This document shows positions 9,493-43,527 of a stretch of 64,000 bases of DNA, piece after piece. The DNA comes from an uncultured Methanospirillum sp. (GTDB lineage Archaea > Halobacteriota > Methanomicrobia > Methanomicrobiales > Methanospirillaceae). Position numbers and translations under genes: made by a program. The notes under the pieces are model-generated. The model made no database searches. It was not told the origin of the DNA and was given only the letters and a program-made list of their open reading frames with translations. Location of the stretch: the NCBI GenBank assembly GCA_964501565.1, contig CAZCUJ010000003.1:41100-105099 (forward strand), written 5' to 3'. How positions within the stretch are numbered: the first letter of the stretch is position 1; each line of letters starts with the position of its first letter.

Positions 9493-9632
9493 CACCGCCC
9501 CGAACGCCCGACCGCCGTCCTGTCCGTGCGCCGCGCGGAGCAGGAGTTGAGGCCGTGCCGGGTCCGATGCGGGGGGCTTTGAGCGCCGATGACAGGGCAG
9601 GGCTGATCGACCTGCTCCGCCGGAGCGAGTGA
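9489..9632 (+). CDS. hypothetical mini-protein (47 aa)
   Basis: ATGA overlap with the zinc-ribbon ORF stop. The R/P-rich composition makes it doubtful. Confidence 0.2.
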   Translation: MTPPRTPDRRPVRAPRGAGVEAVPGPMRGALSADDRAGLIDLLRRSE

Positions 9633-9965
9633 TCGGGGCAGGTCTCGAGGATCGTCCCTCGAACCAGCATCATCACGGCGGGCGGTACGCGATGCCCGGG
9701 GAGGACGCGCGATGAACCCCGACCTGGGGCGGGGAGCTCCCGCCGATAAAAACAGAGATCGACAGCGCGGTATTCTGCCGGTTCCGGCTCGACATCGAGT
9801 GGCGCCGATGCACCGGGTCCTCAGTCCGGCGGCAGAGTGCACCATGCAGACGGAACGAACTCGATACCACTGTGCCGCCGCCAAACACTTGATGCATCTC
9901 GGCGACCGGGAGAACGCGAATCGAGTTTTGATTGAGGCCACTCCGCAGCGCAGTCGAGGAGCATA

Positions 9966-10331
9966 ATGGGCATCTGGATCGGCGACCTGCTCAGGTGTTA
10001 CGACGGAACCTCCTACGAGGTCGGCGCCTTTCTCGATTGCGGCGAGTCTCGCGAAGGGGGCGGAACCCTGTACACCGTCTGTCTTCTGCCGATGCTCGGC
10101 GACCCCACCAATCCCGAGGACTGGATCACCGTCCCGCTGATCGTGGCCGGCGATGTGGTCCTCTGTCCGTACCACTGGCGGAGCAATCCGAACGCGTACC
10201 GGCTCGACATTTCCGAATATCGATGGGTGGAGATGGCGACCCGGACGGCGTGCGTGATGATCGACGGATGGCCGTATCTGCCGCCCGGGCCAGGCGGTCC
10301 GGACGAGCGGCCGGGCTCTGTGAACGACTGA
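9966..10331 (+). CDS. hypothetical protein (121 aa)
   Basis: Unbiased, protein-like composition ('GIWIGDLLRCYDGTSYEVGAFLDCGE...'). The start overlaps an upstream short ORF stop (TAATG). No family recognised. Confidence 0.5.
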   Translation: MGIWIGDLLRCYDGTSYEVGAFLDCGESREGGGTLYTVCLLPMLGDPTNPEDWITVPLIVAGDVVLCPYHWRSNPNAYRLDISEYRWVEMATRTACVMIDGWPYLPPGPGGPDERPGSVND

Positions 10332-10341
10332 CGGAAGGACG

Positions 10342-10629
10342 GTGCTGTCCTGCCCACGAACACGAACGACGACGGGCTGGGTCGAGCGCAAGAGATGTTC
10401 ATTGCGGATCGACGGTGGACGAGGCGATACTCTCATCATCTCCAGCGGCACCTGTCGCCCCATACGTCCCTGTCATTGTAAGGATTGCAGGGGGGTCTCG
10501 ATCTCCTTGGCGCCACTCGCCGCCCTGGCGGGGACGGGTAGCTTCCCCACCGGGACAGACGATTCTACCATGCCGATCTGGCCCGGGTTCTTCGCGTGGT
10601 CGGATCGACCTGTGGGGCGGACCGCATGA
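10342..10629 (+). CDS. hypothetical protein (95 aa), doubtful
   Basis: GTG start preceded by GGAAGGA. The stop overlaps the next start (ATGA at 10626). The Cys/Arg/Thr-rich composition is ambiguous. Confidence 0.3.
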   Translation: MLSCPRTRTTTGWVERKRCSLRIDGGRGDTLIISSGTCRPIRPCHCKDCRGVSISLAPLAALAGTGSFPTGTDDSTMPIWPGFFAWSDRPVGRTA

Positions 10630-10952
10630 CCGCCGACCAGGGCGGCGAGGAGATCGACGAGCGGATCCGCGCGATCATGGTCGAGGGGGTCGCGGACCGG
10701 TTTTTCATGCTGTCTGGCCGCGCAGAGTGCATTCGCAACGGCTCCTCGCGAACCATCTCGTGCACCAGGGACCTCGAGATGTTCACCGCAGTGCTCGATG
10801 CACTCGCGGCTGATCTCGGTCAGCCCCACGCAGATCCCGTGCGCCGCATGACCGAGGATCTCGAGGCGCGGGCCGCCCTGGATCGATCGGCGCTCGTCCA
10901 CCTCTACCAGATGGAAGAGGCAGACCGGCCCGGCGGAAGACCAGAGCCATGA
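10626..10952 (+). CDS. hypothetical protein (108 aa)
   Basis: 'MTADQGGEEIDERIRAIMVEGVADRFFMLSGRAECIRNG...' has a helical, protein-like composition. It is the last member of the plus-strand mini-ORF chain and is convergent with the PolB gene. Confidence 0.45.
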   Translation: MTADQGGEEIDERIRAIMVEGVADRFFMLSGRAECIRNGSSRTISCTRDLEMFTAVLDALAADLGQPHADPVRRMTEDLEARAALDRSALVHLYQMEEADRPGGRPEP

Positions 10953-11007: not shown

Positions 11008-12984
11008 CTACGCCAGCGGTGCATACTCCCTCCTCTCCGCCGGTACACCGAGCCCCACGGCAATCTCGGCCCACGCCTTCGCGAGCACGCGGCGGTAGTA
11101 CTGCCGATCGGCGTGGTCCGCGTTCCAGGCGCAGTCCGCGAGACCGGCCCGGGCATCCCGGACGACGTACCGGATCGTCATCCCCGGCGCCACGGGCACG
11201 CCGGCCCGCCGGTACGATGCCACCGCGCCCCGTTCCGGGCATTTCCTTGTATAGTCCACCGTCGAGATCCGCCGGCTGATCACCAGGTCCTCGACCGGTG
11301 CCGTCGCGAGGCTGTCGCAGTACCGCCGGTAGACACCTTCGACCTCGGGAGCGATCGCCCGCAGCTCCGCGGTCGACCGCGCCGTGCCCATCAGGGCGAG
11401 CGCCTCCTGCTGGAACTGCTGCACGTACGCCGGGCAGTCTCCGCGCCGGGCCATGATCCCCCGGACCTTCACCTCGCCGTCGTCGAGCCGGCCGTAGTAC
11501 CACGTGTACGCCCCCGTCCCGTCCTTCTGCGGCAGGAAGACCACCCAGTCGAAGGTCTCGACCTCCATCAGGTACCCGCTCTCCGCCTCGATCGCGGCCC
11601 TGAGCCGGTCCACGGGCTCACCCTGGACGAAGAGGCAGTCCGTGATACCGTGCAGCACCTCGAAGCCCATCGCCTCCGCCAGGTCCTTCGACGCGATCAA
11701 CACCTCGCGCGAGATCCGCGTGATCGTTTCGTGGACGTCCACGCGCCCGAACTTCGCGTTCTTGTACCCGGTATAGCCGAAGCAGGTCACGAGCATCCAC
11801 TTGAGCACCGAGTCCATGCCGGCTACCGCCGGGTCCGCCCTCTTCGCGGCCTTCGTCCTGATCCGCATCTCCAGCAGGGGCCGGAGGCATTCGGCGAGGA
11901 ACCCCGACCGTTCAGGGTGCTCGACCGTCTCGGGCGAGAGATTGTGCCTGACGATGATCGACGGGTAGAGCGAGGTGAAGTCGACCTGGTAGACCTGTTC
12001 GTAGACCCCCGGCGCCGGCTGGAACATCATCCCGCCGCGATCTGCTGCCCGGAGCGCCGTGATGGTCTTCGCCCGCTCGGCGTCGGCCTTCTGCCAGGGC
12101 ACGGCGATCCCCCGGGAGAGCGCCGCGTACACTTCGAAGGACGAGATCAACGTGCCCGGGGTGACCCGCGCCGCCCGGTTCGGCGAGAGCCCGGTGATCC
12201 GTGCCGCGACGAGCACGCCGGGGAGGCCTCCCTCGCGGTAGGTGAACGACTGTTCCGTGTCGATCAGCACGCGCCCGGCCGGGATCATCGCCTTGGGCTT
12301 GTGATACATCCGGCCGTACGAGAAGTACGACCGCGAACCGAGCGTGACGTACCGCCCGGTCCGCGAGAATGCCGTCTCGAGCCCGTAGCAGGTCGCCGCC
12401 TCGACGAGCCGCTCGGTCCACGTGTCCGCGTTCGGGAAGAGGACGACGTCGGGGTCGACCGTCTCGACGAGGCCGAGGAGGTCCCCGAGCACGGTCCGCT
12501 CGTCGCCCTCGAACCGGCGAGTCCGGTCGCCGTCGGTCATGGTGCCTCCCTCGATCCGGTCTGATCGGACGGGATCGCCGTCGAGCGCAAGCTCGGTCAC
12601 GACGAGGTCCTGCGCAAGGGTCATCGAGAACCGCTCTTCGCCCGGCCCCGTGCAGGGAAGGAGGCCGCGCTCGGCGAGGTAGCGCTGGTCGCGGCGGACG
12701 TCGACGTTGTAGCAGACCGCCCCGTAGTCGGTCTGCCGCAGGACCGCCGCGGCCACGTCCTTGCCGGCGTCGATACGCCAGCCCGGCCGTTCGTCGTGGA
12801 TGGTCCGGACCGTGACCGGCTCGAGGCCGACCTCGCTCTCGAGCGCGTCGAGGAGTGGCCAGTGGCGGACGGGGTCGTCGAGAGTAAGGAGGAACGACGG
12901 CGGGCAGGGGACGCGCTCGACCGCGCCGCCCGGGCCCCAGAGCGCGACCGTGCCCCGCTCGACCGTGGTGTCGAGGACCCACAC
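11008..12984 (-). CDS. family-B DNA polymerase, short PolB2-like form with degenerate exonuclease and motif-C residues
   Basis: 658 aa with a GTG start. Motif A 'VDFTSLYPSII' is intact. Motif B is 'KWMLVTCFGYTGY'. Motif C is 'HGITDC' where 'YGDTDS' is expected. 'VKVRGIMARRGD' is KxY-like. The ExoI and ExoII positions read 'LALDGD' and 'FPNADTWTERL'. Confidence 0.85.
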   Translation of the reverse strand: MWVLDTTVERGTVALWGPGGAVERVPCPPSFLLTLDDPVRHWPLLDALESEVGLEPVTVRTIHDERPGWRIDAGKDVAAAVLRQTDYGAVCYNVDVRRDQRYLAERGLLPCTGPGEERFSMTLAQDLVVTELALDGDPVRSDRIEGGTMTDGDRTRRFEGDERTVLGDLLGLVETVDPDVVLFPNADTWTERLVEAATCYGLETAFSRTGRYVTLGSRSYFSYGRMYHKPKAMIPAGRVLIDTEQSFTYREGGLPGVLVAARITGLSPNRAARVTPGTLISSFEVYAALSRGIAVPWQKADAERAKTITALRAADRGGMMFQPAPGVYEQVYQVDFTSLYPSIIVRHNLSPETVEHPERSGFLAECLRPLLEMRIRTKAAKRADPAVAGMDSVLKWMLVTCFGYTGYKNAKFGRVDVHETITRISREVLIASKDLAEAMGFEVLHGITDCLFVQGEPVDRLRAAIEAESGYLMEVETFDWVVFLPQKDGTGAYTWYYGRLDDGEVKVRGIMARRGDCPAYVQQFQQEALALMGTARSTAELRAIAPEVEGVYRRYCDSLATAPVEDLVISRRISTVDYTRKCPERGAVASYRRAGVPVAPGMTIRYVVRDARAGLADCAWNADHADRQYYRRVLAKAWAEIAVGLGVPAERREYAPLA

Positions 12985-13065
12985 GGTCAGCGCCCTCCGT
13001 CTGCTGCGCGCGGTTCCCGCCGGTCTCCCGGCGCCGTCCTCCCGGTTCCGCGCGTCGTCCCGGGG

Positions 13066-13287
13066 TCAGGCGGGAGCCGCATGGCTCGCGGTCACGCCCT
13101 CGAGCTCGATCAGCACCGCGAGGACCGCGGCCTCGAGCGGATCGTCGAGCCCGCCGAAGGTCGCCGGCCCGTGCTTCTCGAGCGCGGCGATGACCCCATC
13201 CATCGCCGGCTGGTCGCCGGCCTTCAGCGCCCGGCGGAACCGCCGCCAGCGCTCGAGGACGAGCGGGAGCTCGCTGCGGCAGCTCAT
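13066..13287 (-). CDS. hypothetical protein (73 aa) upstream of the PolB-like gene
   Basis: ATG at 13287. 'MSCRSELPLVLERWRRFRRALKAGDQPAMDGVIAALEKHG...' is helical and on the same strand as PolB, 81 bp upstream of it. Confidence 0.4.
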   Translation of the reverse strand: MSCRSELPLVLERWRRFRRALKAGDQPAMDGVIAALEKHGPATFGGLDDPLEAAVLAVLIELEGVTASHAAPA

Positions 13288-13429
13288 GCCGCGCCTCCCG
13301 CCGTCGCCATGGGTCCCGTCCGACCGCCACGCTGGTATCGGGGAGGGGTGGAGGGACCGCATCCGTTGCTGTCGTGCATGGTGAGAACCACTACGTCGCC
13401 GCCATTGTCAAGGCGGCGGACGTCAGATC

Positions 13430-13475
13430 CTCGACGTCAAGATATATGAGGAGTGACGATCGCGGTGTGAAAGTG
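13430..13475. repeat. direct repeat DR2 (core 46 bp)
   Basis: CTCGACGTCAAGATATATGAGGAGTGACGATCGCGGTGTGAAAGTG is the partner of 8616-8661. Confidence 0.75.
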
Positions 13476-13692
13476 AGCGAGCCCTGATCGCGGAGGACGG
13501 AATAGGACGAGAAGATTGTTGGAGAGCCAGGCACCGTCGGTGACGATGACTCTGCCGTTACCGTAAACGTCGTTGGATAATCCGTCGCTACCGGTATCCG
13601 TCGGAGTGCCGATACCGTGGGCCGGGCTCCGGCCCGGGCGAAGCCTGCGGGGGCAGGCCCCTATTGCAGGTCTCCGCCCGGGCGTATGCTCC
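13437..13692 (-). pseudogene. 3'-terminal gene fragment without a start codon, ending inside DR2
   Basis: The open minus-strand frame '...TDTGSDGLSNDVYGNGRVIVTDGAWLSNNLLVLFRPPRSGLAHFHTAIVTPHIS*' lies directly downstream of the peptidase stop. No ATG/GTG/TTG is available. It uses rare codons (tta, aga). Confidence 0.3.
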
Positions 13693-16071
13693 TTACGCGA
13701 TCCAGGGGACGTCGAAGGTGTAATCCGGAGGCGCCTCGCCCTGGAGGTGGAGGACGAAGTAGTCGAACTGCCGGCGGATGAAGTAGGGATCGTAGTTGAA
13801 GTGGTGGTTCCTGTTCGGCAGGACCAGCATGTCAAAGGTCCTGTTCGCTTCGACCAGGGCGTTCGCGAGCTGGAGGCTCATCGACGGATGGACGTTATCG
13901 TCGAGGTCGCCTGTCACCAGGAGCAGGTTGCCCGTCAGGTTGGCCGCCTTCAGGGCAGTTACCTGCTCCAGGTAGTTTTCGCCGTCGGGCATTCCCTCGT
14001 ACTTCTCGCCCCAGTACGAGCCGTAGAGGCGGTTGTCCTGGTTCCCGGCCGAGGCCACGCCGACGGAATAGAACGTCGGGTAGGTGAGCAGCGCCTGCGC
14101 TGACATAAAACCGCCGCCCGAGTGACCGTAGATCCCGACGCGGTCGAGGTCCATGTACGATCGGTTCCTGCCGAGGGCCTGAATCCCCGAGATATGGTCC
14201 GCGAGCCCGCCCGCGTCACCCATGGATCCGTACGCGGCGTCATGGAAGGCCTTGGAGCGATAGGGCGTGCCCGGACCGTCGAGATTCACCACGACGAAGC
14301 CGAGCTCGGCAAGGGCCTGGGCCTTCCAGAAGATCTTCGCGTTCCAGCTGTAGTCTCCGGGGAACGCCTTCTCCGTCACGATCGACTGCGGCCCGGGATA
14401 GACCGAGTCGACGACCGGGTACATCGCCTGCGGATCGAACGTCGTCGGGAGGAAGAGGAGGCCGTAGAGGTCGGTCACGCCGTCCGCGGCCTTTACCCTG
14501 ACCCGCTCCGGCTGTCGCCAGCCGAGCGAGGTCAGATACGAGGTGTCCGCCTCCTGGACCTCGAGGAGGAAGGCACCGTCGGTCGCGCGGACGATCGTCC
14601 GGGGCGGTTCGTCGACCCGTGAGTAGGTATCCACGAAGACGCTCCCGTCGGGAGAGAGAGAGATCGCGTGATCGGCGTCCTCTGGGGTGAGGAGCGTCAT
14701 ATTCGTGCCGTCCGGGTGAACGCGGTAGAGGTGGCGGTAGTACGGATCGCGGTCTGGTTCGCGGCCTCCCGCCGTGAAATAGACCCAGCCGTCGCTAACG
14801 TCGAGGAGGGTCCGGACGACCCAGTCCCCTGCAGTGACGGCGTTCATCAGCCGTCCGTCCGCGCCGTAGCGATAGAGATGTCCCCACCCGCTCCGCTCGG
14901 AGAACCAGAGGAACTCGCCGTTCGTCTCGTTCACCCAGACGTTCGGCGCGCCGCCGTAGTCCAGGTTCGACTCGAGGTACGTGCTCCCGGTCTCGTTCAG
15001 TGCCTCGCGCACGGCGCCCGTGACGGGGTCCTCCTCGAGGAAGCGGAGCGTCCGTTCCCCCCGCTCTACGAACAGGGAGTGGACCCGCGACCCGTCCGCG
15101 CTCCACCACGCGAGAACGAACGCGCCTCCGTCCATGGACGAGGTGTGGGGCCAGGGGGCGTGGTTGACCCGGACGACCGACCCGTTCGCGACGTCGACGA
15201 CCACGGGCTCGTACTGCGCCACCTCCTCGCCGGGGTACGAGTAGCGGTAGGAGTAGGGAATGGGCCTGAGCGTGCCGTTCTCGGGGGAGTACTGCAGGAG
15301 GCCGAGCGCTGTCACGTTCCGCTGGTCGACCTGGAACGTCCTAACCCTGCGGGAGTCGGGGGACCAGGCGGCGAACGGCGTCGCCGTCGTGTTCTCCCGC
15401 GCGGCCGTCACGGGCTCGCTCGATACGTCCGCGATCCTGGCGTACGGGTGGTCGACCGTTCCGTCACCGGTCAGGCGGCGCACAGTGCCGGTCTGCAGAT
15501 CTCGGAGGGCGATGTTCTCTCCGTCGAGGAAGAGGGCGAGGAGGCCGTCGGGCGAGACGAGATCGCCGTCGGCGGGCGCGACGCCCGGGCTCCGGTCGTG
15601 GAGCACGGCCCCGTCCCATTCCCAGCTCCGGTTGAACGCCGCGAACCGGGCAGCCCCGTTCCCACGCACGACGACGGCCGCGAGGGGGAGCCCGGAGACG
15701 TTGACCGCCTCGCCGTTCGCGTCGGAGAGCGCTGTCGCAAGCGCGGCGTGGTCGAAGGCCGGCCGCTGCGTCCGGTTCAGGGGATCGACCAGGATGTACG
15801 ACGTCCCGCCCCGGCCGGTCCGTTCGTACCAGAACGCGGGGCTGTCCCCGATCCAGTGCGGCTCGGCCGACAGGTTGTACAGCTCGTGGACCACGCTCTG
15901 CGGGAGGAACTGCTCGGCCCTCGCATAATCCCCAGCGTCGGCAGCCGTCCTGCTTGCGCTGCTGGAAGAGCTGGTGAGCGAGAGGAACGGGTTCAGGTTC
16001 GTCCCAGCGCCTGCCGTGGAGAAGGTGAAGAGCAGGACCAGGGCGACCGCGAGGAGGGTATAGATCCGCAT
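13693..16071 (-). CDS. secreted S9-family serine peptidase (dipeptidyl-peptidase IV / prolyl oligopeptidase type)
   Basis: 792 aa. It has an N-terminal signal peptide 'MRIYTLLAVALVLLFTFSTAGAG', a beta-propeller-like N-half, and a C-terminal alpha/beta hydrolase with the nucleophile motif 'IYGHSGGGFMS' and 'GDLDDNVH'. Confidence 0.85.
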   Translation of the reverse strand: MRIYTLLAVALVLLFTFSTAGAGTNLNPFLSLTSSSSSASRTAADAGDYARAEQFLPQSVVHELYNLSAEPHWIGDSPAFWYERTGRGGTSYILVDPLNRTQRPAFDHAALATALSDANGEAVNVSGLPLAAVVVRGNGAARFAAFNRSWEWDGAVLHDRSPGVAPADGDLVSPDGLLALFLDGENIALRDLQTGTVRRLTGDGTVDHPYARIADVSSEPVTAARENTTATPFAAWSPDSRRVRTFQVDQRNVTALGLLQYSPENGTLRPIPYSYRYSYPGEEVAQYEPVVVDVANGSVVRVNHAPWPHTSSMDGGAFVLAWWSADGSRVHSLFVERGERTLRFLEEDPVTGAVREALNETGSTYLESNLDYGGAPNVWVNETNGEFLWFSERSGWGHLYRYGADGRLMNAVTAGDWVVRTLLDVSDGWVYFTAGGREPDRDPYYRHLYRVHPDGTNMTLLTPEDADHAISLSPDGSVFVDTYSRVDEPPRTIVRATDGAFLLEVQEADTSYLTSLGWRQPERVRVKAADGVTDLYGLLFLPTTFDPQAMYPVVDSVYPGPQSIVTEKAFPGDYSWNAKIFWKAQALAELGFVVVNLDGPGTPYRSKAFHDAAYGSMGDAGGLADHISGIQALGRNRSYMDLDRVGIYGHSGGGFMSAQALLTYPTFYSVGVASAGNQDNRLYGSYWGEKYEGMPDGENYLEQVTALKAANLTGNLLLVTGDLDDNVHPSMSLQLANALVEANRTFDMLVLPNRNHHFNYDPYFIRRQFDYFVLHLQGEAPPDYTFDVPWIA

Positions 16072-18800: not shown

Positions 18801-20249
18801 ATGTCCGCGAACGCCGCCGAAGAACCGGCCGGTCGCCTGAAGGCGCTCGGCACCGAACTCGGGACGCTGCAGCGCTCGCTCCACACCCGCGGCGTCCCGG
18901 TCATCATCGTGGTCGAGGGCTGGAACGCCTCGGGGATCTCAGACGCGGTCGCGGCCCTCCTCCATGGATTCGACCCCCGGGGCGTCGACTTCCACGCGAT
19001 CGGTCGGCCCGGCGAGGAGGAACGGGACCACCATTTCATCCGGCGGTTCTGGGTCAGGACGCCGGTCCGCGGCAGGGTCGCGGTCTTCGCGCGGTCGTGG
19101 TACTCCCGGGCACTGGCCGAGGAGGCGACCGGCATCGACTGGGAGCACCGGCTCGAACGGACCGTCGGCTCCATCGCCACCTTCGAGAGGCAGCTGGCCG
19201 ACGGCGGGGCCCTGATCCTGAAGTTCTTCCTGCAGATCAGCAGGGACGAGCAGCGGCGCCGGCTGCTCGCCCGGGAGCGGGACCCGCTGACCTCGTGGCT
19301 GATTACCCAGAACGACTGGGACTTCCACCGCCAGTACGACGAACTGACGCCCGTCATCGATCAGGTGCGCCGGGCGACGGACGTGCCGTGGGCCCCCTGG
19401 TGCGTGGTCGACGCCGAGCAGCCGGGCCCGGCCATCGAGCAGGTGCTCTCGACCGTGGCCAAGCGCTTCCGCGCCTGGCTCGACGAGCCCGGGGAGACGG
19501 AAGGGCACCGTGTTCCGCCGCTCCCCCCGATCGCCGGGGAGTCGCTCCTGGACCGCGTGGACCTCGCGCGCAGCATGGGCGACCGCGAATACGCCCGGCT
19601 CTCGCCGGTGTGCCAGGAACGACTCCGTGCGGCGCAATACTCACTCTCGCGCAGGGGCATCCCGCTCGTGATCGTGTACGAGGGCTGGGACGCCGCCGGC
19701 AAGGGGGGGTCGATCAAGCGGATGGTGACGCCCATGAACCCCCGCCTGTGCACGGTCGTGCCGGTCGGGCGGCCGACGTCCGAGGAACTCGCGCATCACT
19801 ACCTCTGGCGGTTCTACCGGCAGTTCCCACGGGCTGGCGAGATCCGGATCTTCGACCGGTCGTGGTACGGCCGCGTCCTGGTGGAGCGCGTGGAGGGACT
19901 GGCGACCGAGTCGCAGTGGCGGCGGGCCTACACCGAGATCAACGAGATGGAGCAGACCTACGTCGAGGACGGCGGCGGGCTCGTCAAGTTCTGGCTCGAG
20001 ATCGATCCGAAGACCCAGCTCAAGCGGTTCCGGGATCGCGAGGAGGACCCGGCGAAGCAGTGGAAGATCACGGAGGAGGACTGGCGCAACCGCGAGAGAT
20101 GGCCCCAATACGCCGAGGCCGTGCGCGAGATGCTCGCGAGGACGAGCACCCAGGCCGCTCCATGGACCGTGATCGAGTCAAACGACAAGCAGTATGCCCG
20201 GATCAAGGCCAAGCGGACCGTGATCGAGTACGTCGAGGGGCTGCTCTAG
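18801..20249 (+). CDS. ppk2: two-domain polyphosphate kinase 2 (polyphosphate:AMP/NMP phosphotransferase type)
   Basis: 482 aa with two tandem PPK2 modules. The C-module has Walker A 'YEGWDAAGKGGSIKR' and 'FDRSWYGRVLVERVEG'. The N-module reads 'VEGWNASGISDAV', so its Walker A is degenerate. Confidence 0.85.
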   Translation: MSANAAEEPAGRLKALGTELGTLQRSLHTRGVPVIIVVEGWNASGISDAVAALLHGFDPRGVDFHAIGRPGEEERDHHFIRRFWVRTPVRGRVAVFARSWYSRALAEEATGIDWEHRLERTVGSIATFERQLADGGALILKFFLQISRDEQRRRLLARERDPLTSWLITQNDWDFHRQYDELTPVIDQVRRATDVPWAPWCVVDAEQPGPAIEQVLSTVAKRFRAWLDEPGETEGHRVPPLPPIAGESLLDRVDLARSMGDREYARLSPVCQERLRAAQYSLSRRGIPLVIVYEGWDAAGKGGSIKRMVTPMNPRLCTVVPVGRPTSEELAHHYLWRFYRQFPRAGEIRIFDRSWYGRVLVERVEGLATESQWRRAYTEINEMEQTYVEDGGGLVKFWLEIDPKTQLKRFRDREEDPAKQWKITEEDWRNRERWPQYAEAVREMLARTSTQAAPWTVIESNDKQYARIKAKRTVIEYVEGLL

Positions 20250-29304: not shown

Positions 29305-30492
29305 ATGTACCTGATTGGAGAAGCACTTGTCGGGGACGGCCCCGAGCTCGCGCACGTCGACCTGATCCTGGGGGACAAGACCGGCCCGGTCGGCCAGGCG
29401 TTTGCGAACGGGTTCTCGCAGCTCTCGGCGGGGCACACGCCGCTGCTCGCGGTGATCCGCCCGAACCTGATGACCAAGCCTGCGACCCTGGTGATCCCGA
29501 AGGTGACCCTGAAGAAGGGCGGGCAGGTCCGCGAGATGTTCGGCCCGGTCCAGGCGGCGGTCGCGAAGGCCGTTGCGGACGCACTCGAGGAGGGCCTCTT
29601 CGGCGACCTCGACGTGGACGAGCTGGTGATCCTCGCGTCGGTCTACCTGGACCCGGACGCGGCGGACTACAACCGGATCTACCGGTACAATTACGGCGCG
29701 ACCAAGCTCGCGCTCACGCGGGCGCTCGATCGCTTCCCGCCGACGAAGACCCTGCTCGACGAGAAGGACCGCGCGGCGCATGCGGTCATGGGGTTCAAGG
29801 TGCAGCGGCTCTGGGACCCGCCGTACCTGCAGGTGGCGCTCGACCTGGTCGACATGGGCCGCGTCCGGCATGTCCTGGCCGAGCTGCCCGAGTCTGACCA
29901 CCTGGTCATCGAGGCGGGGACGCCGACGATCAAGCAGTTCGGGCTCTCGGTCATCTCGGAGATCCGGAAGGTCCGGCCGAGCGCGTTCATCATCGCGGAC
30001 CTCAAGACCCTCGACACGGGCAACCTCGAGGCCCGGATGGCCGCCGATGCCACCGCGGACGCGGTCGTGATCTCGGGCCTCGCGCCCCTGCCCACGATCG
30101 AGAACGCGCTGTCCGAGGCGAAGAAGACCGGGATCTACTCGATCATCGACATGCTGAACGTCGCCGACCCGGTGGCGCTGATCCGCGACCTGAAGGTCAA
30201 GCCCGATATCGTCGAGCTCCACCGCGGGATCGACTGCGAGAAGGACGGGACCTGCCATGTCTGGGGCGATATCCCGGCCATGCGCGAGGCCGCCGGTGGC
30301 CGTCTCCTGGTCGCGACGGCCGGCGGCATCCGGGTCGAGAACGTCCACGACGCGCTCGCGGCGGGCTCGCAGATCATCGTCGTGGGACGGGCGATCACGG
30401 CCTCGAAGGACGTCCGCCACGCCGCCGAGGAGTTCCTCGAGCAGCTGGGACAGGCCGAGATCGACCAGTTCCGGATCATGACGGACTTCTGA
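29305..30492 (+). CDS. fae-hps: bifunctional formaldehyde-activating enzyme / 3-hexulose-6-phosphate synthase
   Basis: 395 aa. The N-terminus 'MYLIGEALVGDGPELAHVDLILGDKTGPVGQAF' is Fae. The C-half 'PYLQVALDLVD...EAGTPTIKQFG...IIADLKTLDTG' is an HPS/OMPDC-type barrel. Confidence 0.9.
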   Translation: MYLIGEALVGDGPELAHVDLILGDKTGPVGQAFANGFSQLSAGHTPLLAVIRPNLMTKPATLVIPKVTLKKGGQVREMFGPVQAAVAKAVADALEEGLFGDLDVDELVILASVYLDPDAADYNRIYRYNYGATKLALTRALDRFPPTKTLLDEKDRAAHAVMGFKVQRLWDPPYLQVALDLVDMGRVRHVLAELPESDHLVIEAGTPTIKQFGLSVISEIRKVRPSAFIIADLKTLDTGNLEARMAADATADAVVISGLAPLPTIENALSEAKKTGIYSIIDMLNVADPVALIRDLKVKPDIVELHRGIDCEKDGTCHVWGDIPAMREAAGGRLLVATAGGIRVENVHDALAAGSQIIVVGRAITASKDVRHAAEEFLEQLGQAEIDQFRIMTDF

Positions 30493-37545: not shown

Positions 37546-38289
37546 TCACTCCTGGACGATGACCGAGGCCTCGGGGTCGAAGGGGCTTGTCCGCACCGCG
37601 AGCGAGAAGAGGTACGGGTAGTACCTGCCGACGTATCCCAGGTATTCGAGCCACTCTGTGACGAGCAGAGGGTAAACCCGCTCCAGGTCCACCGCGAGGT
37701 GCTCCCGGTCCGCCGGGGGGAGGGCGGCGAGGTCCGGACGCCGTCCGAGCTCCTCGGTCACGTGGAAGATCGCCCTGAGGAGCTCGGCGAACTCCTCGTG
37801 CTCGAGGAGCGCGGGGTTCTCGAGGAGCCGGAGCAGGAAGTCCTCGTGCTTCCGAAGGAACGCCCTGACCCCGGGAAGGTCGATGGCCGCGGGGTCGATG
37901 CGATAGGCGCGGCCCTCCAGCAGCCGGCGCAGCGTGGGAAGGTCGTCGGGGGTCCAGGCGCGATCCCGCCGTATAGAATCGCGTATCCCCTCAATGCCGG
38001 GATCGCCGCGCACCAGGTGTTCGAGCAGGTCGATCCCGACCGTGCTGAAGAACGCGCCGATCAGCATGCCGAGCTTGTCGCGCCGCTGCTTGCGGGCGCG
38101 GGACTCGAGCAGCCCGTGGATCACCAGGGTCACGAGGAGGACCTCGAATGGGATGAACGCGACGTCCTCGACGAAGAAGATCAGGATGTGGTGGAGATCC
38201 TGGAAGATGACGTAGTGGAGCACGTAGATCGCGGCAGAGACGGCGACGAGCACCGCGCCGAAGAGGACTAGGAAACGCCGGTCGACCAT
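37546..38289 (-). CDS. hypothetical membrane-anchored protein
   Basis: 247 aa. It has two or three N-terminal TM helices followed by a helical soluble domain. Coding composition is good. No motif recognised. Confidence 0.6.
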   Translation of the reverse strand: MVDRRFLVLFGAVLVAVSAAIYVLHYVIFQDLHHILIFFVEDVAFIPFEVLLVTLVIHGLLESRARKQRRDKLGMLIGAFFSTVGIDLLEHLVRGDPGIEGIRDSIRRDRAWTPDDLPTLRRLLEGRAYRIDPAAIDLPGVRAFLRKHEDFLLRLLENPALLEHEEFAELLRAIFHVTEELGRRPDLAALPPADREHLAVDLERVYPLLVTEWLEYLGYVGRYYPYLFSLAVRTSPFDPEASVIVQE

Positions 38290-38365: not shown

Positions 38366-38779
38366 TCAGCCGGTCAGGGTCACGGTCACGACCCGCGAGC
38401 GGGAGGACCGGACGTCGAGCTCGAGCAGGACGACCTGTTGCCAGGTGCCGAGGAGGAGCCGCCCGTCCCGGAACGGGACCGGGAGGGACGGACCGACCAG
38501 CGCGGCCCGGACGTGCGAGCGCCCGTTGCCGTCGCCCCAGGCCCGGTCGTGGGCGTAGGCGGCGTCTCTCGGGGCGAGGACGTCGAGGGCGCGCGCCAGG
38601 TCCTCGAGGACCCCGGGTTCGTACTCGATGGTGGTCACGGCGGCCGTCGAACCGCCGATGAAGACGGTCGCGACCCCGGACGACATCCCGCTCTCGCGGA
38701 TGGCAGCGGCGACGTGTGCCGTCAGGTCGACGACCTCTCCCTCGCCGTGCGTCTGGATGGTGATCTCCGTCTGGAACAT
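38366..38779 (-). CDS. YjbQ/UPF0047 family protein (secondary thiamine-phosphate synthase-like)
   Basis: Called from ATG 38779. 'MFQTEITIQTHGEGEVVDLT', 'VFIGGSTAAVTTIEYEPGV' and 'GNGRSHVRAALVGPSLPVPF..G.L.LGTWQQVVLLELD' are YjbQ signatures. Confidence 0.8.
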   Translation of the reverse strand: MFQTEITIQTHGEGEVVDLTAHVAAAIRESGMSSGVATVFIGGSTAAVTTIEYEPGVLEDLARALDVLAPRDAAYAHDRAWGDGNGRSHVRAALVGPSLPVPFRDGRLLLGTWQQVVLLELDVRSSRSRVVTVTLTG

Positions 38780-38896
38780 GGATTCACCCTCTCTCGCATA
38801 GTATGTCTCCCGCAATGCCCCTGTCGGTCAGGCCCCGTTCACTCCGAACAATTATTGCGCTCGGGCCCAAATCCCCTCTCAATCAGGTCAAGACGC

Positions 38897-40843
38897 ATGA
38901 CCCAGAAAGCCAGCATCGTCACGGAACTCGGTGAGCAGGCCGTCCTCCTTCCCGCGCTCGTCCACCAGGCGCTCGCCGCCAACGACAGGATCAAGTACTA
39001 CTTCTCCCTCCTGCAGACGGCCCGGCAGCGCGCCGAGCACCCTGGCCAGACCCCCTCGACCCTCCGCGACGAGCGCGAGGCGGCCGGGATCGAGGACCCG
39101 GCACTCGACAGCGTCGTGGCCGGTGCTCTCCGCCTGAGCGACGGCCGCTACCGGCTACCGGTGCTCGACGAGATCCTGCTCGAGATCCGCCGTGCGGCCG
39201 AGGAGATGCTGCGGCCCCTGGTCGTCTCGGGCACCCCCGGGGCCGATGCATTCGGCACCCGGCTCGCCACCCTCCTCGGGACGGTCCGCGGGGACGGGCC
39301 GGACGAGATCGACGGCAGCAGGATCCACGCGATCACCTCGGGCGACCGGGCCGCCGGCGACAGCCTCCACCTGCTCGTGATGGACCTCCACAGGGCGCTC
39401 AACGGTCTCCTGGACGACCTTGCCAACGAGACGGTGGACGGGGCCAGGACCTACCTGCTCGGCGACGGGGACCGGGTCCTCGTCAGCGCGTTCATGGGCG
39501 GTCTCAACAGGACGGCTCCCCTGAAGTTCGAGCATCCCGGCCTCGGGACCACCGTGACGCGCGCCGGCGAGAAGCTCGTGATCCAGAACGACATCGGGGT
39601 GACCGAGGCTCATGTCCTGGTGGTCACGGTCACGGGTCTCACGGTCACGGTCACCTACACCGACGTGCACATGGCCCGCCTTGCCTTCTTCCAGTCCCTC
39701 TTCGACGACCGCGGGGTGGAGTGGTCCGACACGCTCTCGCGACGGGACACGGTCTCGCGGGAGAGCGGCGGGATCTACCACCTCACCATCGGGACCCATG
39801 TCGCCGCGGACGAGGACGACTGCCTTGCCTTCCTCGGGCACCTGGGCTCGCGCCTCGTCTTCCTGATCGACTGGAACAAGGCGAGAAAGCAGCTGCGAAA
39901 CTTCCTGCTCAACCGGGACGCGGTGGCCGTGATACGGAAGGCGGCGCGGGAGGAGGTCGGCCATCGCGGCTTCCTCGAGCTCGGCGGGGACCGGCTGATC
40001 TACTCGGCACTCGAGCTCGCCGCCCGTGTCCCGCTCCGCTACGGCGAGCCCCTCCACAAGGTCCTCGGGCGGGAGAAGACCATGGAGTACCTATCCTGGG
40101 TCCTGAAGGCCGCGTCGGAGGGGCTGATGCGCGGCATGCCCCGTCTCCTCATCCGGGACCAGTGCCGCGCCGAGCTCCTCCGGTACTTCCGCACGGCCCA
40201 GGTGGAGCTCCTCGAGCGGTGCACGGACCACGCCACCCTGCTGATCGACGTCGCGCTCGCCCTCCAGACGTCGGTCATCGCTCTCCGGGCCGGCTCGGGG
40301 CTGGACCGGCTTCCGCGCAACGCGACACGTGCCAAGCGATGGGAGCGTGAGGCGGACCTGGTCGTCTCCGAGGTCCGGGCGCTCTCGGGACGGATCGAGG
40401 AGGTGGGGTTCTTCGAGAACCTGATCACGGTCCAGGACGACGCGCTCGATTACCTGGAGGAGGGCTGCTTCCATTCCACGCTCCTCGACGAAGCCGGCCA
40501 GTACCCGCTGAGCCTCCAGGGGCTCGAGGAGATGGCCGGCCTCGCCGTCCAGGCCGTGCGGGAGTTCATCCGAGCACTCTCCGCGGCCCAGTACACGCGC
40601 GCCGGCGCGAGCCGCGACGAGCTGCAGGAGTTCTTCATCGCGGCCAACCGCGTGATCGCGGTCGAGGAGGAGGCGGACGACGCGCGGCGCCGGACCGAGC
40701 GGTCCATCGTCAGGGAGGTCCGGCATCCCGGCGCGATGCACGCCTGCACCGAGCTCTCGCGCACGCTCGAGGAGTCCACGAACGCCCTGATGAAGGCCGT
40801 CTACATCCTCCGTGACAACACCCTCGAGGAGGTCCGTCGGTGA
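38897..40843 (+). CDS. large uncharacterised protein with C-terminal DUF47/PhoU-like helical domain
   Basis: 648 aa counted from ATG 38897; the track ORF's upstream part is shadow. The C-terminal ~200 aa carry 'KRWEREADLVVSEVRAL...LITVQDDALDYLEE' and a second 'EEEADDARRRTERSI...' half, as in DUF47 Pit-accessory/PhoU-like proteins. The N-terminal ~430 aa are unrecognised. Confidence 0.65.
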   Translation: MTQKASIVTELGEQAVLLPALVHQALAANDRIKYYFSLLQTARQRAEHPGQTPSTLRDEREAAGIEDPALDSVVAGALRLSDGRYRLPVLDEILLEIRRAAEEMLRPLVVSGTPGADAFGTRLATLLGTVRGDGPDEIDGSRIHAITSGDRAAGDSLHLLVMDLHRALNGLLDDLANETVDGARTYLLGDGDRVLVSAFMGGLNRTAPLKFEHPGLGTTVTRAGEKLVIQNDIGVTEAHVLVVTVTGLTVTVTYTDVHMARLAFFQSLFDDRGVEWSDTLSRRDTVSRESGGIYHLTIGTHVAADEDDCLAFLGHLGSRLVFLIDWNKARKQLRNFLLNRDAVAVIRKAAREEVGHRGFLELGGDRLIYSALELAARVPLRYGEPLHKVLGREKTMEYLSWVLKAASEGLMRGMPRLLIRDQCRAELLRYFRTAQVELLERCTDHATLLIDVALALQTSVIALRAGSGLDRLPRNATRAKRWEREADLVVSEVRALSGRIEEVGFFENLITVQDDALDYLEEGCFHSTLLDEAGQYPLSLQGLEEMAGLAVQAVREFIRALSAAQYTRAGASRDELQEFFIAANRVIAVEEEADDARRRTERSIVREVRHPGAMHACTELSRTLEESTNALMKAVYILRDNTLEEVRR

Positions 40844-42429
40844 CCCCGGCGATCGCGCTCTTCGGCACGAACCGGGACACGGGCAGGGCACCGGCGGCGC
40901 AGTACGGCAACAAGGCGGCAGTCCTGGCCGAGATGGCCGAGATCGGCGTACCCGTCCCTCCGGGGTTCGCGCTGCCGATCGACGCATGCGAGGAGTACTT
41001 CGCCGGTGACGGTTCCCTCCCGCCATGGGTCCCGGCCCTGCTCGCGCAGGGGATCGCGGAGCTTGAGTCCGCCACCGGGCTGGGGTTCGGGAACGACCGC
41101 CGGCCGCTCATGGTCTCGGTCAGATCGGGCGCGGCGGTCTCGATGCCGGGGATCATGGAGACGATCCTCAACGTCGGCCTCTCGCGCGCGACCGTCGGGG
41201 GCCTGGTCTACCGGACGGGGAACCCCCGTTTTGCCTGGGACTGCTACCGGCGTCTCCTCGCTCAGTTCGGCGAGGTCGTCCGGGGCCACGACCCCGCCCG
41301 GTACCGTGCCCTCGTCCGCGAGGCGATGGAGGCGGAGGGGGTGCCGGACCAGGCCGAGCTCGACACGGCGAGCCTGAGGACCCTCGCGGGCCAGTTCGAG
41401 CGGGTGCACGTTGAAGCAGGCCATCCCTTCCCATCGGACGCCGAGGAGCAGCTCGCGGCCTGCACCGAGGCCGTGCTCGCCTCGTGGGGGGGTCCCCGGG
41501 CCCAGGCCTTCCGCAGGCTGGGCCTCGCGGGCGATGCCCGCGGGACGGCGGTCGCCATCCAGTCGATGGTCTTCGGAAACCTGGGCTCCGCATCAGGCGC
41601 CGGCGTCGCGTTTACGCGGAACCCCTGGTCAGGGCACCCGGGCCTCCTCCTCGACTTCCGGTTCGGGGCCCAGGGCGAGGAGGTGGTCTCGGGCGAGCAG
41701 GCCGGCATGGACCAGGAGGCCTTCGCGCGCGTGATGCCCGAGCAGTTCGAGGCGCTGGCACGGATCGGCGCGCAGCTCGAGCGGCGGTTCGGGGACATGC
41801 AGGACATGGAGTTCACGATCGAGGAGGGGCGGTTCTTCATCCTCCAGAGCCGTGCGGGCAAACGGTCCCCGCTCGCGGCACTGCGGATCGCGATCGACCT
41901 CGTCGACGAGGGGTTGATCGACCCGGCCAGGGCGCTCGCTCAGCTCGACGGGATCGACCTCGACGGGATACGGGTACGGCGTGTCGTCGGCGGGGGCGAT
42001 CTCCTGGTGACCGGCACGCCGGCCTCGGGCGGCGTCGCGTCGGGCTCGATCGCGTTCACGGGGGAACGGGCCGAGGCGGAGGCACTCTCCGGGGGTGTCA
42101 TCCTGGTCCGACCAACCGCGTCGCCCGACGATATCGGGGGGATCCAGGCGGCCGCCGGGCTGCTCGTCGCGCGGGGTGGCCGCACCTCGCACGCGGCCGT
42201 TGTTGCACGGCAGCTCAACAAGGTCTGTGTGGTCAACTGTCCCGGGCTCTCCATCAACCGGCACCGCAGGATGTGCCGGCTCGGGGAGGCGGTGCTCCGC
42301 GAGGGGGACGTGATCTCGATCGACGGCGACACGGGTCGCGTCTACCGTGGCGTGGTCGCCGTCTCCGAAGAGCGGCCGGTCGCCCTTATCGAACGGGTCC
42401 GGGGCTGGTCGGGCCGCGGGCGCGGCTGA
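40840..42429 (+). CDS. pyruvate-phosphate-dikinase-like protein lacking the PEP/pyruvate-binding domain (ATP-grasp plus phosphohistidine swivel only)
   Basis: 529 aa. The GTG start overlaps the upstream stop (GTGA). 'YGNKAAVLAEMAEIGVPVPPGFAL' and 'MVSVRSGAAVSMPGIMETILNVGL' are the PPDK N-domain. 'ARGGRTSHAAVVARQLNKVCVV' and 'GDVISIDGDTGRVYRG' are the His domain. The ORF ends right after it. Confidence 0.8.
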   Translation: MTPAIALFGTNRDTGRAPAAQYGNKAAVLAEMAEIGVPVPPGFALPIDACEEYFAGDGSLPPWVPALLAQGIAELESATGLGFGNDRRPLMVSVRSGAAVSMPGIMETILNVGLSRATVGGLVYRTGNPRFAWDCYRRLLAQFGEVVRGHDPARYRALVREAMEAEGVPDQAELDTASLRTLAGQFERVHVEAGHPFPSDAEEQLAACTEAVLASWGGPRAQAFRRLGLAGDARGTAVAIQSMVFGNLGSASGAGVAFTRNPWSGHPGLLLDFRFGAQGEEVVSGEQAGMDQEAFARVMPEQFEALARIGAQLERRFGDMQDMEFTIEEGRFFILQSRAGKRSPLAALRIAIDLVDEGLIDPARALAQLDGIDLDGIRVRRVVGGGDLLVTGTPASGGVASGSIAFTGERAEAEALSGGVILVRPTASPDDIGGIQAAAGLLVARGGRTSHAAVVARQLNKVCVVNCPGLSINRHRRMCRLGEAVLREGDVISIDGDTGRVYRGVVAVSEERPVALIERVRGWSGRGRG

Positions 42430-42435
42430 CCCGCG

Positions 42436-43527
42436 TCAGGCCTGGATCTTCGCCCTGCGCAGCGCGGAGAATCCCATGACCACGATCAGGTAGAACGCGA
42501 GGGCGATCATGAGGACCTCTCCGTAGAGCACCGCCCACTGCACGAGGGCCGGCTCGAAGGCGAGCGGGGCGGCGAACGTCGGGCGGAAGGCGTTCAGCCC
42601 GGCGATCGTCGGATTGCGGGTGGCGATCAGCGAGACCAGGGGAAGGGCGACGAGGGCCGCGATGACCACGGAGATGCCCTCGCGCCAGGTCAACACCTGG
42701 GGCTCGAGCATGACGAACGGCGTGATCACGGCCACGGCCGGGACGAGCAGGGGGAGGACGAATATCTCGGAGCCGACCACCCCCGGGTTGGCCTGCGCGA
42801 AGGCCGTGACGCCGAGCGCGCAGGCGACGACCGGGAAGAGGAGGAGCATGTGAAGCCCCTTCTCGCGTGGAAAGCGGATGTACTGCACTACCGAGAACGC
42901 CAGGAGCCCCGCCGCGACCGCCTCGGCGACGCCGAGCGCCGCCAGGAGGAGGAGCCCGCCGAAGAGGAAGCCCGAGAACGACGAGGACATCCGGTCCGAG
43001 ACCTCGTCGATGAAGAGGGCGAGGGCGTAGCCCATCCCGGCCGTCAGCAGGCCGAAGAGCAGGAGGCCCAGGCCGACGACGGGGTACGCTGCCGCTTCCT
43101 GCAGCCCGAGCGCGTCCCCGGCGAGACGGCCCAGGCCGGTCAGCGGGCTCGGGACGAGGACGAAGAGGATGACCAGCGAGACGGCGGACGCGATGAGCGC
43201 CGCCGTGGCACGCGCCATATGGTCGAGGGCATAGGAGAAGACCGGCATGGGCACGAGGGCCGCGAGCCCCGCGATCAGGGCCAGGAGGAGCAGGCCCGGC
43301 CCCCCCGACACGTCGGGCGGGACGATGAACAGCACGAGCGAGACGCCGATCGCGAGGAGAATCGGCACCACCCGGTGCCAGCGGCCGATGGCGCTCCGTT
43401 CGAGGATGATCTCGAGGGCCGGGGCGACGAGCAGGGCCGGGGCTATCCAGGTCCAGGACGGAATGGATGCCAGGAGGCCGGGTTCGATCGCCACAGGTAC
43501 TGGATCGCCGCGGAGGTATAAAGGCAA
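42436..43527 (-). CDS. hypothetical polytopic membrane protein
   Basis: 363 aa, almost entirely hydrophobic helices (about 10 TM). No motif recognised. Confidence 0.65.
   Translation of the reverse strand: MPLYLRGDPVPVAIEPGLLASIPSWTWIAPALLVAPALEIILERSAIGRWHRVVPILLAIGVSLVLFIVPPDVSGGPGLLLLALIAGLAALVPMPVFSYALDHMARATAALIASAVSLVILFVLVPSPLTGLGRLAGDALGLQEAAAYPVVGLGLLLFGLLTAGMGYALALFIDEVSDRMSSSFSGFLFGGLLLLAALGVAEAVAAGLLAFSVVQYIRFPREKGLHMLLLFPVVACALGVTAFAQANPGVVGSEIFVLPLLVPAVAVITPFVMLEPQVLTWREGISVVIAALVALPLVSLIATRNPTIAGLNAFRPTFAAPLAFEPALVQWAVLYGEVLMIALAFYLIVVMGFSALRRAKIQA

Follow-up and report, generated by a model that had tools for sequence, protein, structure and literature searches.

What can a dikinase phosphorylate once it has lost the barrel that holds its substrate? 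The question is raised by a pair of genes on a contig of an uncultured Methanospirillum sp. (assembly GCA_964501565.1, contig CAZCUJ010000003.1, positions 41,100 to 105,099); this whole 64-kb stretch is referred to here as the window. Gene A (38897-40843, forward strand; ATG start, 648 amino acids (aa), 71.7 kDa) encodes a novel N-terminal domain followed by a PhoU/DUF47-like C-terminal domain. Gene B (40840-42429, forward strand; GTG start, 529 aa) encodes a truncated pyruvate phosphate dikinase (PPDK), consisting of an ATP-grasp domain and a swivel phosphohistidine domain with no TIM barrel for phosphoenolpyruvate (PEP) or pyruvate. The A-B pair is real, conserved and uncharacterised, and joins a swivel-histidine dikinase to a novel partner domain; the most probable role is that of a phosphotransfer enzyme, not described so far, in inorganic phosphate (Pi)/polyphosphate (polyP) metabolism. 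The observations behind this answer are the domain content of the two proteins, their catalytic residues, the conserved operon, gene fusions, and an association with CHAD, PPX, PPK, and PstS genes.

The front half of a dikinase

A preliminary description of this DNA credited B with complete ATP-grasp and swivel domains, and the searches bear this out: Pfam finds PF01326 (PPDK_N, E 2.7e-36) and PF00391 (PEP-utilizers, E 2.7e-21), and no other family. B aligns at about 40% identity with residues 18-529 of the 873-residue PPDK of C. symbiosum (1kbl) and with residues 9-514 of maize PPDK (1vbg); because the alignments stop there, at residue ~529 of 873 in 1kbl, B ends where the TIM barrel begins, as had been proposed. 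The NCBIfam models make B PPDK-like rather than PEP-synthase-like. On TIGR01828, the model of canonical PPDK (865 positions), B covers positions 16-517 and scores 494.3 bits against a cut-off of 843.45; on NF004531, the model of truncated PPDKs of the VadK/PRK05878 type, it scores 384.2 bits against a cut-off of 456, which is under its score for the canonical enzyme.

The ATP-grasp domain, of the nucleotide- and Pi-binding PPDK type, extends over 40885-41874 (forward strand; B residues ~16-345, from the alignment to maize PPDK) and includes the segments RSGAAVSMPG, DMEFT, and LQSRAGKR. The phosphohistidine swivel domain occupies 41992-42360 (forward strand; residues 385-507), corresponds to PF00391, and matches the isolated PPDK carrier domain 2fm4. 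Its motif GGRTSHAAVVAR (residues 446-457) contains the catalytic His451, encoded at nt 42190-42192, and Thr449. The protein closes with a conserved helix at 42361-42429 (forward strand; residues 508-529), of the form ERPxxLIxxVxxW or ERPxxLLxxVxxW, which is the counterpart of the PPDK linker that precedes the TIM barrel; the whole family stops at this point, and complete orthologues of 529-575 aa have the helix in common. Of the 68 residues that are invariant across 58 aligned orthologues, maize PPDK has 64 unchanged, and modelled B superimposes on 1kbl with a deviation of 2.2 Å over 518 columns. Canonical PPDK (EC 2.7.9.1) and B thus have in common the ATP-grasp residues and the phosphohistidine motif GG(R/M)TSHAAVVAR; canonical PPDK continues into the PF02896 TIM barrel, whereas B is without it and is paired or fused with A instead. 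By these comparisons B is a front half of PPDK that is intact and under selection. With its catalytic residues retained, it can be expected to form His~P from ATP, as VadK of Mycobacterium tuberculosis does, which is truncated in a similar way (PMC13400623).

A decayed remnant, that is, a frameshifted or truncated ppdK pseudogene beside an unrelated gene, would account for the truncation and for nothing else. The conservation of B refutes it and leaves it practically no probability: the G+C content of B at third and second codon positions (GC3 0.90, GC2 0.52) is like that of the surrounding genes, and dozens of orthologues of 529-575 aa have the same conserved end and invariant catalytic residues, with fusions besides. 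A frameshifted or split ppdK was rejected as well. The gene downstream of B is on the minus strand, neither the window nor any of 86 related loci gave a PEP/pyruvate TIM barrel in tblastn with that of E. coli PpsA (best E 1.3), and Pfam found no PF02896 on 20 further large open reading frames (ORFs) of the window. The frameshifted canonical ppdK or ppsA that the preliminary description named as a possible refutation is not encoded here.

The partner protein

Gene A contributes two domains, the first of which (38897-40186, forward strand; A residues 1-430) is uncharacterised. An AlphaFold 2 (AF2) model of A built with 83 homologues (predicted local distance difference test (pLDDT) 87.2, predicted template modelling score (pTM) 0.67) gives it an alpha/beta fold, with helices, a beta-rich core at residues 217-302, and then more helices. 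Most invariant residues of A fall within this domain. Across alignments of 83 and 84 sequences, which include archaea, bacteria, and fusion proteins, they are H158, D163, H165, H213 (within FxHPGLG), N231, D232, H239, D256, H258, R261, D325, W326, N327, R330, K331, and H356. Six invariant histidines together with Asp, Arg, and Lys residues are as expected of an active or binding site, as far as conservation can indicate one.

The preliminary description had called the first ~430 residues of A unrecognisable, and profile and structure-prediction searches leave them so. No Pfam or NCBIfam family matches them (window protein, with Pfam also run on 22 diverse relatives at E <=1), no PDB sequence is found by phmmer or profile searches, and Foldseek with two AF2 models returns no PDB fold better than E 0.3. 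The idea that the domain is a cryptic PhoU repeat was dropped after hhalign of sub-alignments gave a probability below 1%, and TTM/CYTH, PHP, PDRP, PPK1, and PPK2 folds, also considered for A, have no fold match in their favour.

These searches also bear on the possibility that A is a PDRP-like (DUF299-type) regulator, reversibly phosphorylating Thr449 beside the catalytic histidine of B. B keeps the Thr of GGRTSH that is the PDRP target in plant PPDK, and PDRP genes often neighbour ppsA or ppdK. In the Pfam, NCBIfam, and PDB searches, however, A resembles neither PDRP/DUF299 nor any P-loop kinase in sequence or fold, and such a role would leave B without an acceptor domain, so that a regulator of this kind is highly improbable.

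The second domain of A (40187-40840, forward strand; residues 431-648) is a six-helix bundle of PhoU/DUF47 type, assigned by Foldseek and by acidic motifs. Its best Foldseek match is 3l39 (E 8e-4, template modelling (TM) score 0.80, root-mean-square deviation 3.1 Å, probability 1.00), with further matches to 2iiu, 2olt, 1t8b, and the PhoU structure 4q25. The motifs EREAD (483-487), DDALDYLEE (514-522), and EEEADDARR (590-598) lie on its helices, and E483, D487, D514, D518, E521, E590, and D594 are invariant. The Pfam model of DUF47, PF01865, reaches 13 bits on window A, below its gathering cut-off of 24.4; 13 of the 22 relatives match at E <=1 (best 5.6e-10), three relatives checked singly exceed the cut-off (26.4, 27.0, and 34.7 bits), and most bacterial A homologues have a precomputed PF01865 match. 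The DUF47/PhoU-type C-terminus put forward in the preliminary description is thus upheld by fold, motifs, and relatives alike.

DUF47/PhoU_div proteins (PF01865, YkaA-type; 3l39, 2iiu, 2olt) and PhoU are six-helix, two-repeat bundles with acidic E/DxxxD motifs like those in A residues ~431-648. Typical members are stand-alone proteins of ~205-235 aa encoded beside Pit or Pst transporters; A differs in its extra conserved domain of 430 residues, in its coupling to a dikinase half, and in having no adjacent transporter in the window. Databases label A 'DUF47 family protein' or hypothetical, and B 'pyruvate, phosphate dikinase' or 'PEP/pyruvate-binding domain-containing protein'; with annotations of this kind only, A does not turn out to belong to a well-characterised unrelated family, an outcome that the preliminary description had considered.

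Conservation, fusions, and gene neighbourhood

Homologues of A, of the same length as A, form more than 4000 clusters in a set of 5.8 billion proteins; at the 50% identity level there are 1168 clusters (E <=0.001), and a scan of one genome per species places A relatives in at least 565 species. Locus counts given here refer to the best 80 genome loci from that scan, which include four orders of methanogens. Among the archaea these belong to Methanomicrobiales, Methanosarcinales, Ca. Methanoperedens, Methanomassiliicoccales, and Nitrososphaerales; among the bacteria to Accumulibacter, Ca. Methylophosphatis, Thiobacillus, Rhodocyclaceae, Burkholderiales, Microthrixaceae, Planctomycetota, Geobacteraceae, and Acidiferrales. 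The gene-neighbourhood survey had been conceived as one across archaea, a frame that proved too narrow, as many bacteria carry A-B as well.

Of the 80 loci, 76 have B immediately 3' of A and in the same orientation, and three of the four misses are contig ends. The estimated gap between the stop of A and the start of B in the 76 loci has a median of 10 nt; it is <=30 nt in 65 of them, and the genes overlap in 15. From locus to locus, the identity of A to its window counterpart rises and falls with that of B (r = 0.92, n=71 loci), and clustering of all flanking ORFs reveals no third conserved gene. With 76 recurrences among 80 related loci, the pairing is far beyond chance rather than peculiar to one genome, and A and B behave like an obligate pair.

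The two genes are also found as one. Single-chain A-B fusions (A followed by PPDK_N and PEP-utilizers) form ~85 clusters at 90% identity, with lengths of 1175-1243 aa and many members from Solirubrobacteraceae, and B is in all cases fused to A, in none to a TIM barrel. This is pertinent to a split canonical PPDK or PEP synthase, in which a TIM-barrel half encoded elsewhere would assemble with B and A would be an accessory or unrelated neighbour. Split dikinases exist, the three-subunit phenylphosphate synthase being an example, and the visible part of this genome is 64 kb; against this, no PEP-utilizers_C domain occurs in the window or the 86 loci, and B, besides having A as its constant fusion partner, always ends at the same conserved helix. 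The chance that such a half exists is slight.

When the window proteins are concatenated and co-folded with the fusions as alignment, the model of 1177 residues has a pLDDT of 88.6 and a pTM of 0.72, with disorder only at the junction (650-663) and the C-terminal helix of B at residues 1162-1176. A pTM of 0.72 over this length suggests a defined mutual arrangement of A and B in the model. The pLDDT of the A N-domain rises in the co-fold, a change that is not counted because it may come from the different alignment.

A second kind of fusion points to phosphate or polyP chemistry. CHAD, an experimentally established and specific polyP-binding module (PMC6537752), is fused to A in eight clusters of ~980-1005 aa, where it occupies residues ~27-254; in the CHAD-A locus with readable DNA (L084), B follows directly. 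PPK1, Ppx-GppA, CHAD, PstS, or PPK2 genes lie within 6 kb of the pair in 14-15 of the 80 loci (~18%), which represent independent lineages and phyla. Recurrent among the 137 immediate neighbours are Ppx-GppA (5), PstS-type (3), and CHAD (2) genes. PPX, PstS, and CHAD genes are present in one or two copies per genome, and the expectation for 137 random neighbours is well below one, a rough figure that comes without a matched control set. Genes of this kind are also near the pair at L001, L002, and L086: in Methanoculleus the pair is followed by Ppx-GppA, CHAD-metallophosphoesterase, and PPK1 genes; in Methanoregula PPK1 and a CHAD/PPX gene lie ~6-8 kb upstream of the pair; and an actinobacterial A-B fusion has a CHAD protein two genes downstream. 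The bacterial carriers of A-B include the polyP accumulators Accumulibacter and Ca. Methylophosphatis, and the archaeal orders with A-B coincide with orders reported to have PPK1, PPK2, and PPX (PMC6864096). The link to Pi or pyrophosphate (PPi) suggested in the preliminary description is reinforced by the CHAD-A fusions and by these neighbours; a tie of A-B to polyP metabolism is credible but unproven.

Several variations on the locus were seen in passing. At L086 (9165-15476), which has an actinobacterial A-B fusion, HD_4 and Metallophos genes precede the fusion gene, and a 98-aa ORF and a 497-aa CHAD protein follow it with overlapping stops and starts; together these genes may form a larger operon related to polyP. 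A P-type cation ATPase (Cation_ATPase_N/C, E1-E2) repeatedly adjoins the pair (L084 at 11632-14142, the P0490 contig, and three flanking ORFs), and both CHAD-A fusion genes examined have one alongside; this neighbour may be related to polyP counter-ions. In a Methanoregula metagenome-assembled genome (MAG; L011, 4322-7276) the frame of B extends into a flavin amine-oxidase/NAD_binding_8 domain to give 984 aa, which is a rare fusion unless it results from an error of assembly or a frameshift. Finally, a convergent Pyr_redox_2 gene lies just 3' of B in 10 loci of Methanoregula/Methanolinea type (among them L013, L016-L020, L023 at 9530-10891 on the minus strand, L062, and L081); neither the window nor the bacteria have it there, and it looks like lineage-specific synteny.

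In the window itself the two genes are joined at 40828-40843 (forward strand), where GGAGG (40828-40832) stands 7 nt 5' of the GTG of B (40840-40842) and the TGA of A occupies 40841-40843. The 4-nt overlap (GTGA) of the GTG start with the stop of the 648-aa protein, as first described, is read directly at 40840-40843 within GAGGAGGTCCGTCGGTGACC; the longer junction reads GAGGAGGTCCGTCGGTGA. Upstream, 81 bp (38816-38896) separate A from a divergent gene of the YjbQ/UPF0047 family (38366-38815, minus strand; PF01894; TIGR00149, secondary thiamine-phosphate synthase family). This region has an A/T-rich AATTATT ~40 nt 5' of the ATG and is the presumed promoter of gene A. Read from a TTG at 38438, A would be longer and would run into the YjbQ gene, and A homologues of 646-648 aa are alignable from residue 1, for which reasons the ATG at 38897 is taken as the start. 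The G+C content of the window is 65-73%, the codon-position G+C of A and B is that of real window genes (GC3 0.88-0.90), and the closest relatives of the window proteins are proteins of Methanoregulaceae, Methanospirillum, and Methanoculleus, which marks the DNA as that of a Methanomicrobiales-type archaeon.

On its 3' side the pair is followed by a minus-strand gene (42436-43527) for a 363-aa protein of multi-pass membrane appearance with no Pfam or NCBIfam match, and then by gyrA and gyrB. The other flank of the pair includes, at 37546-38289 (minus strand), a gene for a 247-aa protein, also with no Pfam or NCBIfam match. Farther away, 29305-30492 (forward strand) encodes Fae (formaldehyde-activating enzyme) fused to a hexulose-phosphate-synthase-type domain of the OMPdecase family, typical of methanogen pentose synthesis.

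Proposed function and its alternatives

The evidence tips modestly towards a swivel-histidine dikinase of two subunits, or sometimes of one chain, with A in place of the TIM barrel and with Pi, PPi, or polyP as substrate. In such an enzyme B would bind ATP, probably with Pi, and load His451 (ATP + Pi + His -> AMP + PPi + His~P), and A would take the place of the PEP/pyruvate barrel as acceptor or specificity module: its N-terminal domain would supply a second active site or acceptor site, and its PhoU/DUF47 bundle would bind or sense phosphate species or metal ions. Given the genomic associations with inorganic phosphate and polyP metabolism, the acceptor or donor would most likely be Pi, PPi, or polyP, possibly in a reversible reaction: polyP(n+1) + AMP + PPi <-> polyP(n) + ATP + Pi. 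The parts of this scheme that we infer are catalysis, the existence of an A-B complex, the passage of the phosphoryl group from B to a site on A, and the nature of the acceptor. The ~85 clusters of A-B fusions support the two-part phosphotransfer enzyme that the preliminary description had in mind. A bolder and rather doubtful version holds that A-B is a phosphohistidine-swivel 'polyphosphate dikinase' (ATP + Pi + polyP(n) <-> AMP + PPi + polyP(n+1)), with the N-terminal domain of A as a new polyP- or PPi-handling catalytic fold.

The logic proposed for A-B, an ATP-grasp domain and a His~P swivel serving a separate substrate module, is that of rifampin phosphotransferase (RPH; 5hv1; PMC4844700), phenylphosphate synthase, and glucan water dikinase. 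A is unrelated to the rifampin-binding domain of RPH, to which Foldseek gives only poor, long alignments (TM 0.15-0.24). Phenylphosphate synthase, like A-B, is split into subunits.

Several observations weigh against a phosphate- or polyP-specific dikinase. About 80% of the loci lack any phosphate gene within 6 kb, only 5 of 80 have PstS next to the pair, and the nearest phosphate gene in the window is 19 kb upstream of the pair (18801-20249, forward strand; 482 aa with two PPK2 domains (PF03976, 1.2e-132, two stretches), the architecture of a polyP:AMP phosphotransferase-type PPK2). The co-fold places the histidine domain of B on its own ATP-grasp domain (2.2 Å from the 1kbl conformer, 13.6 Å from the swivelled 2r82), and since B is modelled in this ATP-facing conformer, docking of His451 on A is not seen. 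The 'second active site' in the N-terminal domain of A is a guess from conservation, with no recognisable catalytic fold behind it, and the known roles of PhoU and DUF47 proteins are mainly regulatory rather than enzymatic. Lastly, one locus, L008 (5914-11636), from a Methanospirillum MAG, has the window order of A, membrane-protein gene, and gyrA, but is without B; it is the fourth miss in the survey and the only clear case of A without B among the 80 loci. The ORF that comes after A there is similar in size and position to the window gene at 42436-43527.

The main rival is a regulatory system, for which VadK (Rv1127c) provides the model. VadK is a truncated PPDK and a regulatory His kinase that autophosphorylates on the equivalent histidine with ATP and Mg, and it co-purifies with a small operonic partner, Rv1126c, and takes a wash with 2 M NaCl to be parted from it (PMC13400623). 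By analogy B would only autophosphorylate, and A would be a PhoU-type sensor or regulator that responds to Pi or polyP or is itself phosphorylated on an invariant histidine; the output would be control of other proteins, such as transporters or PPK/PPX, with no new metabolite. PhoU/DUF47 proteins are known regulators of phosphate transport and the C-terminus of A has their fold, and any of the six invariant histidines of A could take the phosphoryl group. On the other hand, the census of flanking genes links no transporter, transcription factor, or other target gene consistently to the pair, B has a higher score for canonical PPDK than for the VadK type, whose cut-off it does not reach, the largest and most conserved part of A is the 430-residue domain of unknown fold rather than the PhoU bundle, and stoichiometric fusion is more typical of enzyme subunits. 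A regulatory role of this kind is a serious but less probable alternative to the dikinase with A as its acceptor module.

VadK and B have the same two-domain truncation (ATP-grasp plus swivel His) but differ in the details. The VadK motif is AASH, as read from a primer sequence, against RTSH in B. VadK adjoins and interacts with methylcitrate-cycle genes (prpD, prpC, prpR), and its partner is the small Rv1126c, not a 648-aa A; the window pair has YjbQ, the membrane protein, and gyrA/gyrB as neighbours, and no prp gene is among the recurrent neighbours of related loci. No A-like partner, CHAD, or phosphate link is reported for VadK in the literature. The statement in the preliminary description that no characterised system has this pairing therefore holds in part. 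A description of A-B was not found in the literature on DUF47, PhoU, CHAD, polyphosphate, PPDK, dikinases, and their truncated forms, which agrees with it; a truncated PPDK that acts as a His kinase has meanwhile been characterised in VadK, with a different partner and gene context.

The known polyP kinases offer a comparison of context rather than of structure. PPK1, PPK2, and PPK3 keep the same genomic company as A-B (PPX, CHAD, PstS) and have no sequence or fold relationship to it; PPK1 belongs to the PLD type, and PPK2 and PPK3 belong to the P-loop kinases; on the dikinase hypothesis A-B would instead use a phosphohistidine swivel and yield AMP. PPK3, an archaeal polyP kinase, was found in 2026 by neighbourhood logic (PMC12995831), and the persistence of polyP accumulation in ppk mutants has long suggested that enzymes are missing (PMC6864096).

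Dikinases of the PPDK/PEP-synthase type are defined by what the swivel phosphohistidine serves, and in A-B the barrel is swapped for a large conserved domain plus a PhoU-like domain, a combination that is found in at least 565 archaeal and bacterial species and has never been named. Accumulibacter, the organism of enhanced biological phosphorus removal, is one of its carriers, and so are the main orders of hydrogenotrophic and acetoclastic methanogens. If A-B is a polyP dikinase, it would spend polyP to turn AMP and PPi, which AMP-forming acetyl-CoA synthetase produces, back into ATP in one step, or else allow AMP-forming synthesis of polyP; methanogens, ammonia-oxidising archaea, and polyP-accumulating bacteria such as Accumulibacter would benefit. 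A role in polyP, PPi, or AMP energy metabolism, if true, would be important to wastewater engineering as well as to the energetics of methanogenesis; if the pair is regulatory instead, it would generalise the discovery of VadK from mycobacteria to a much larger and older family.

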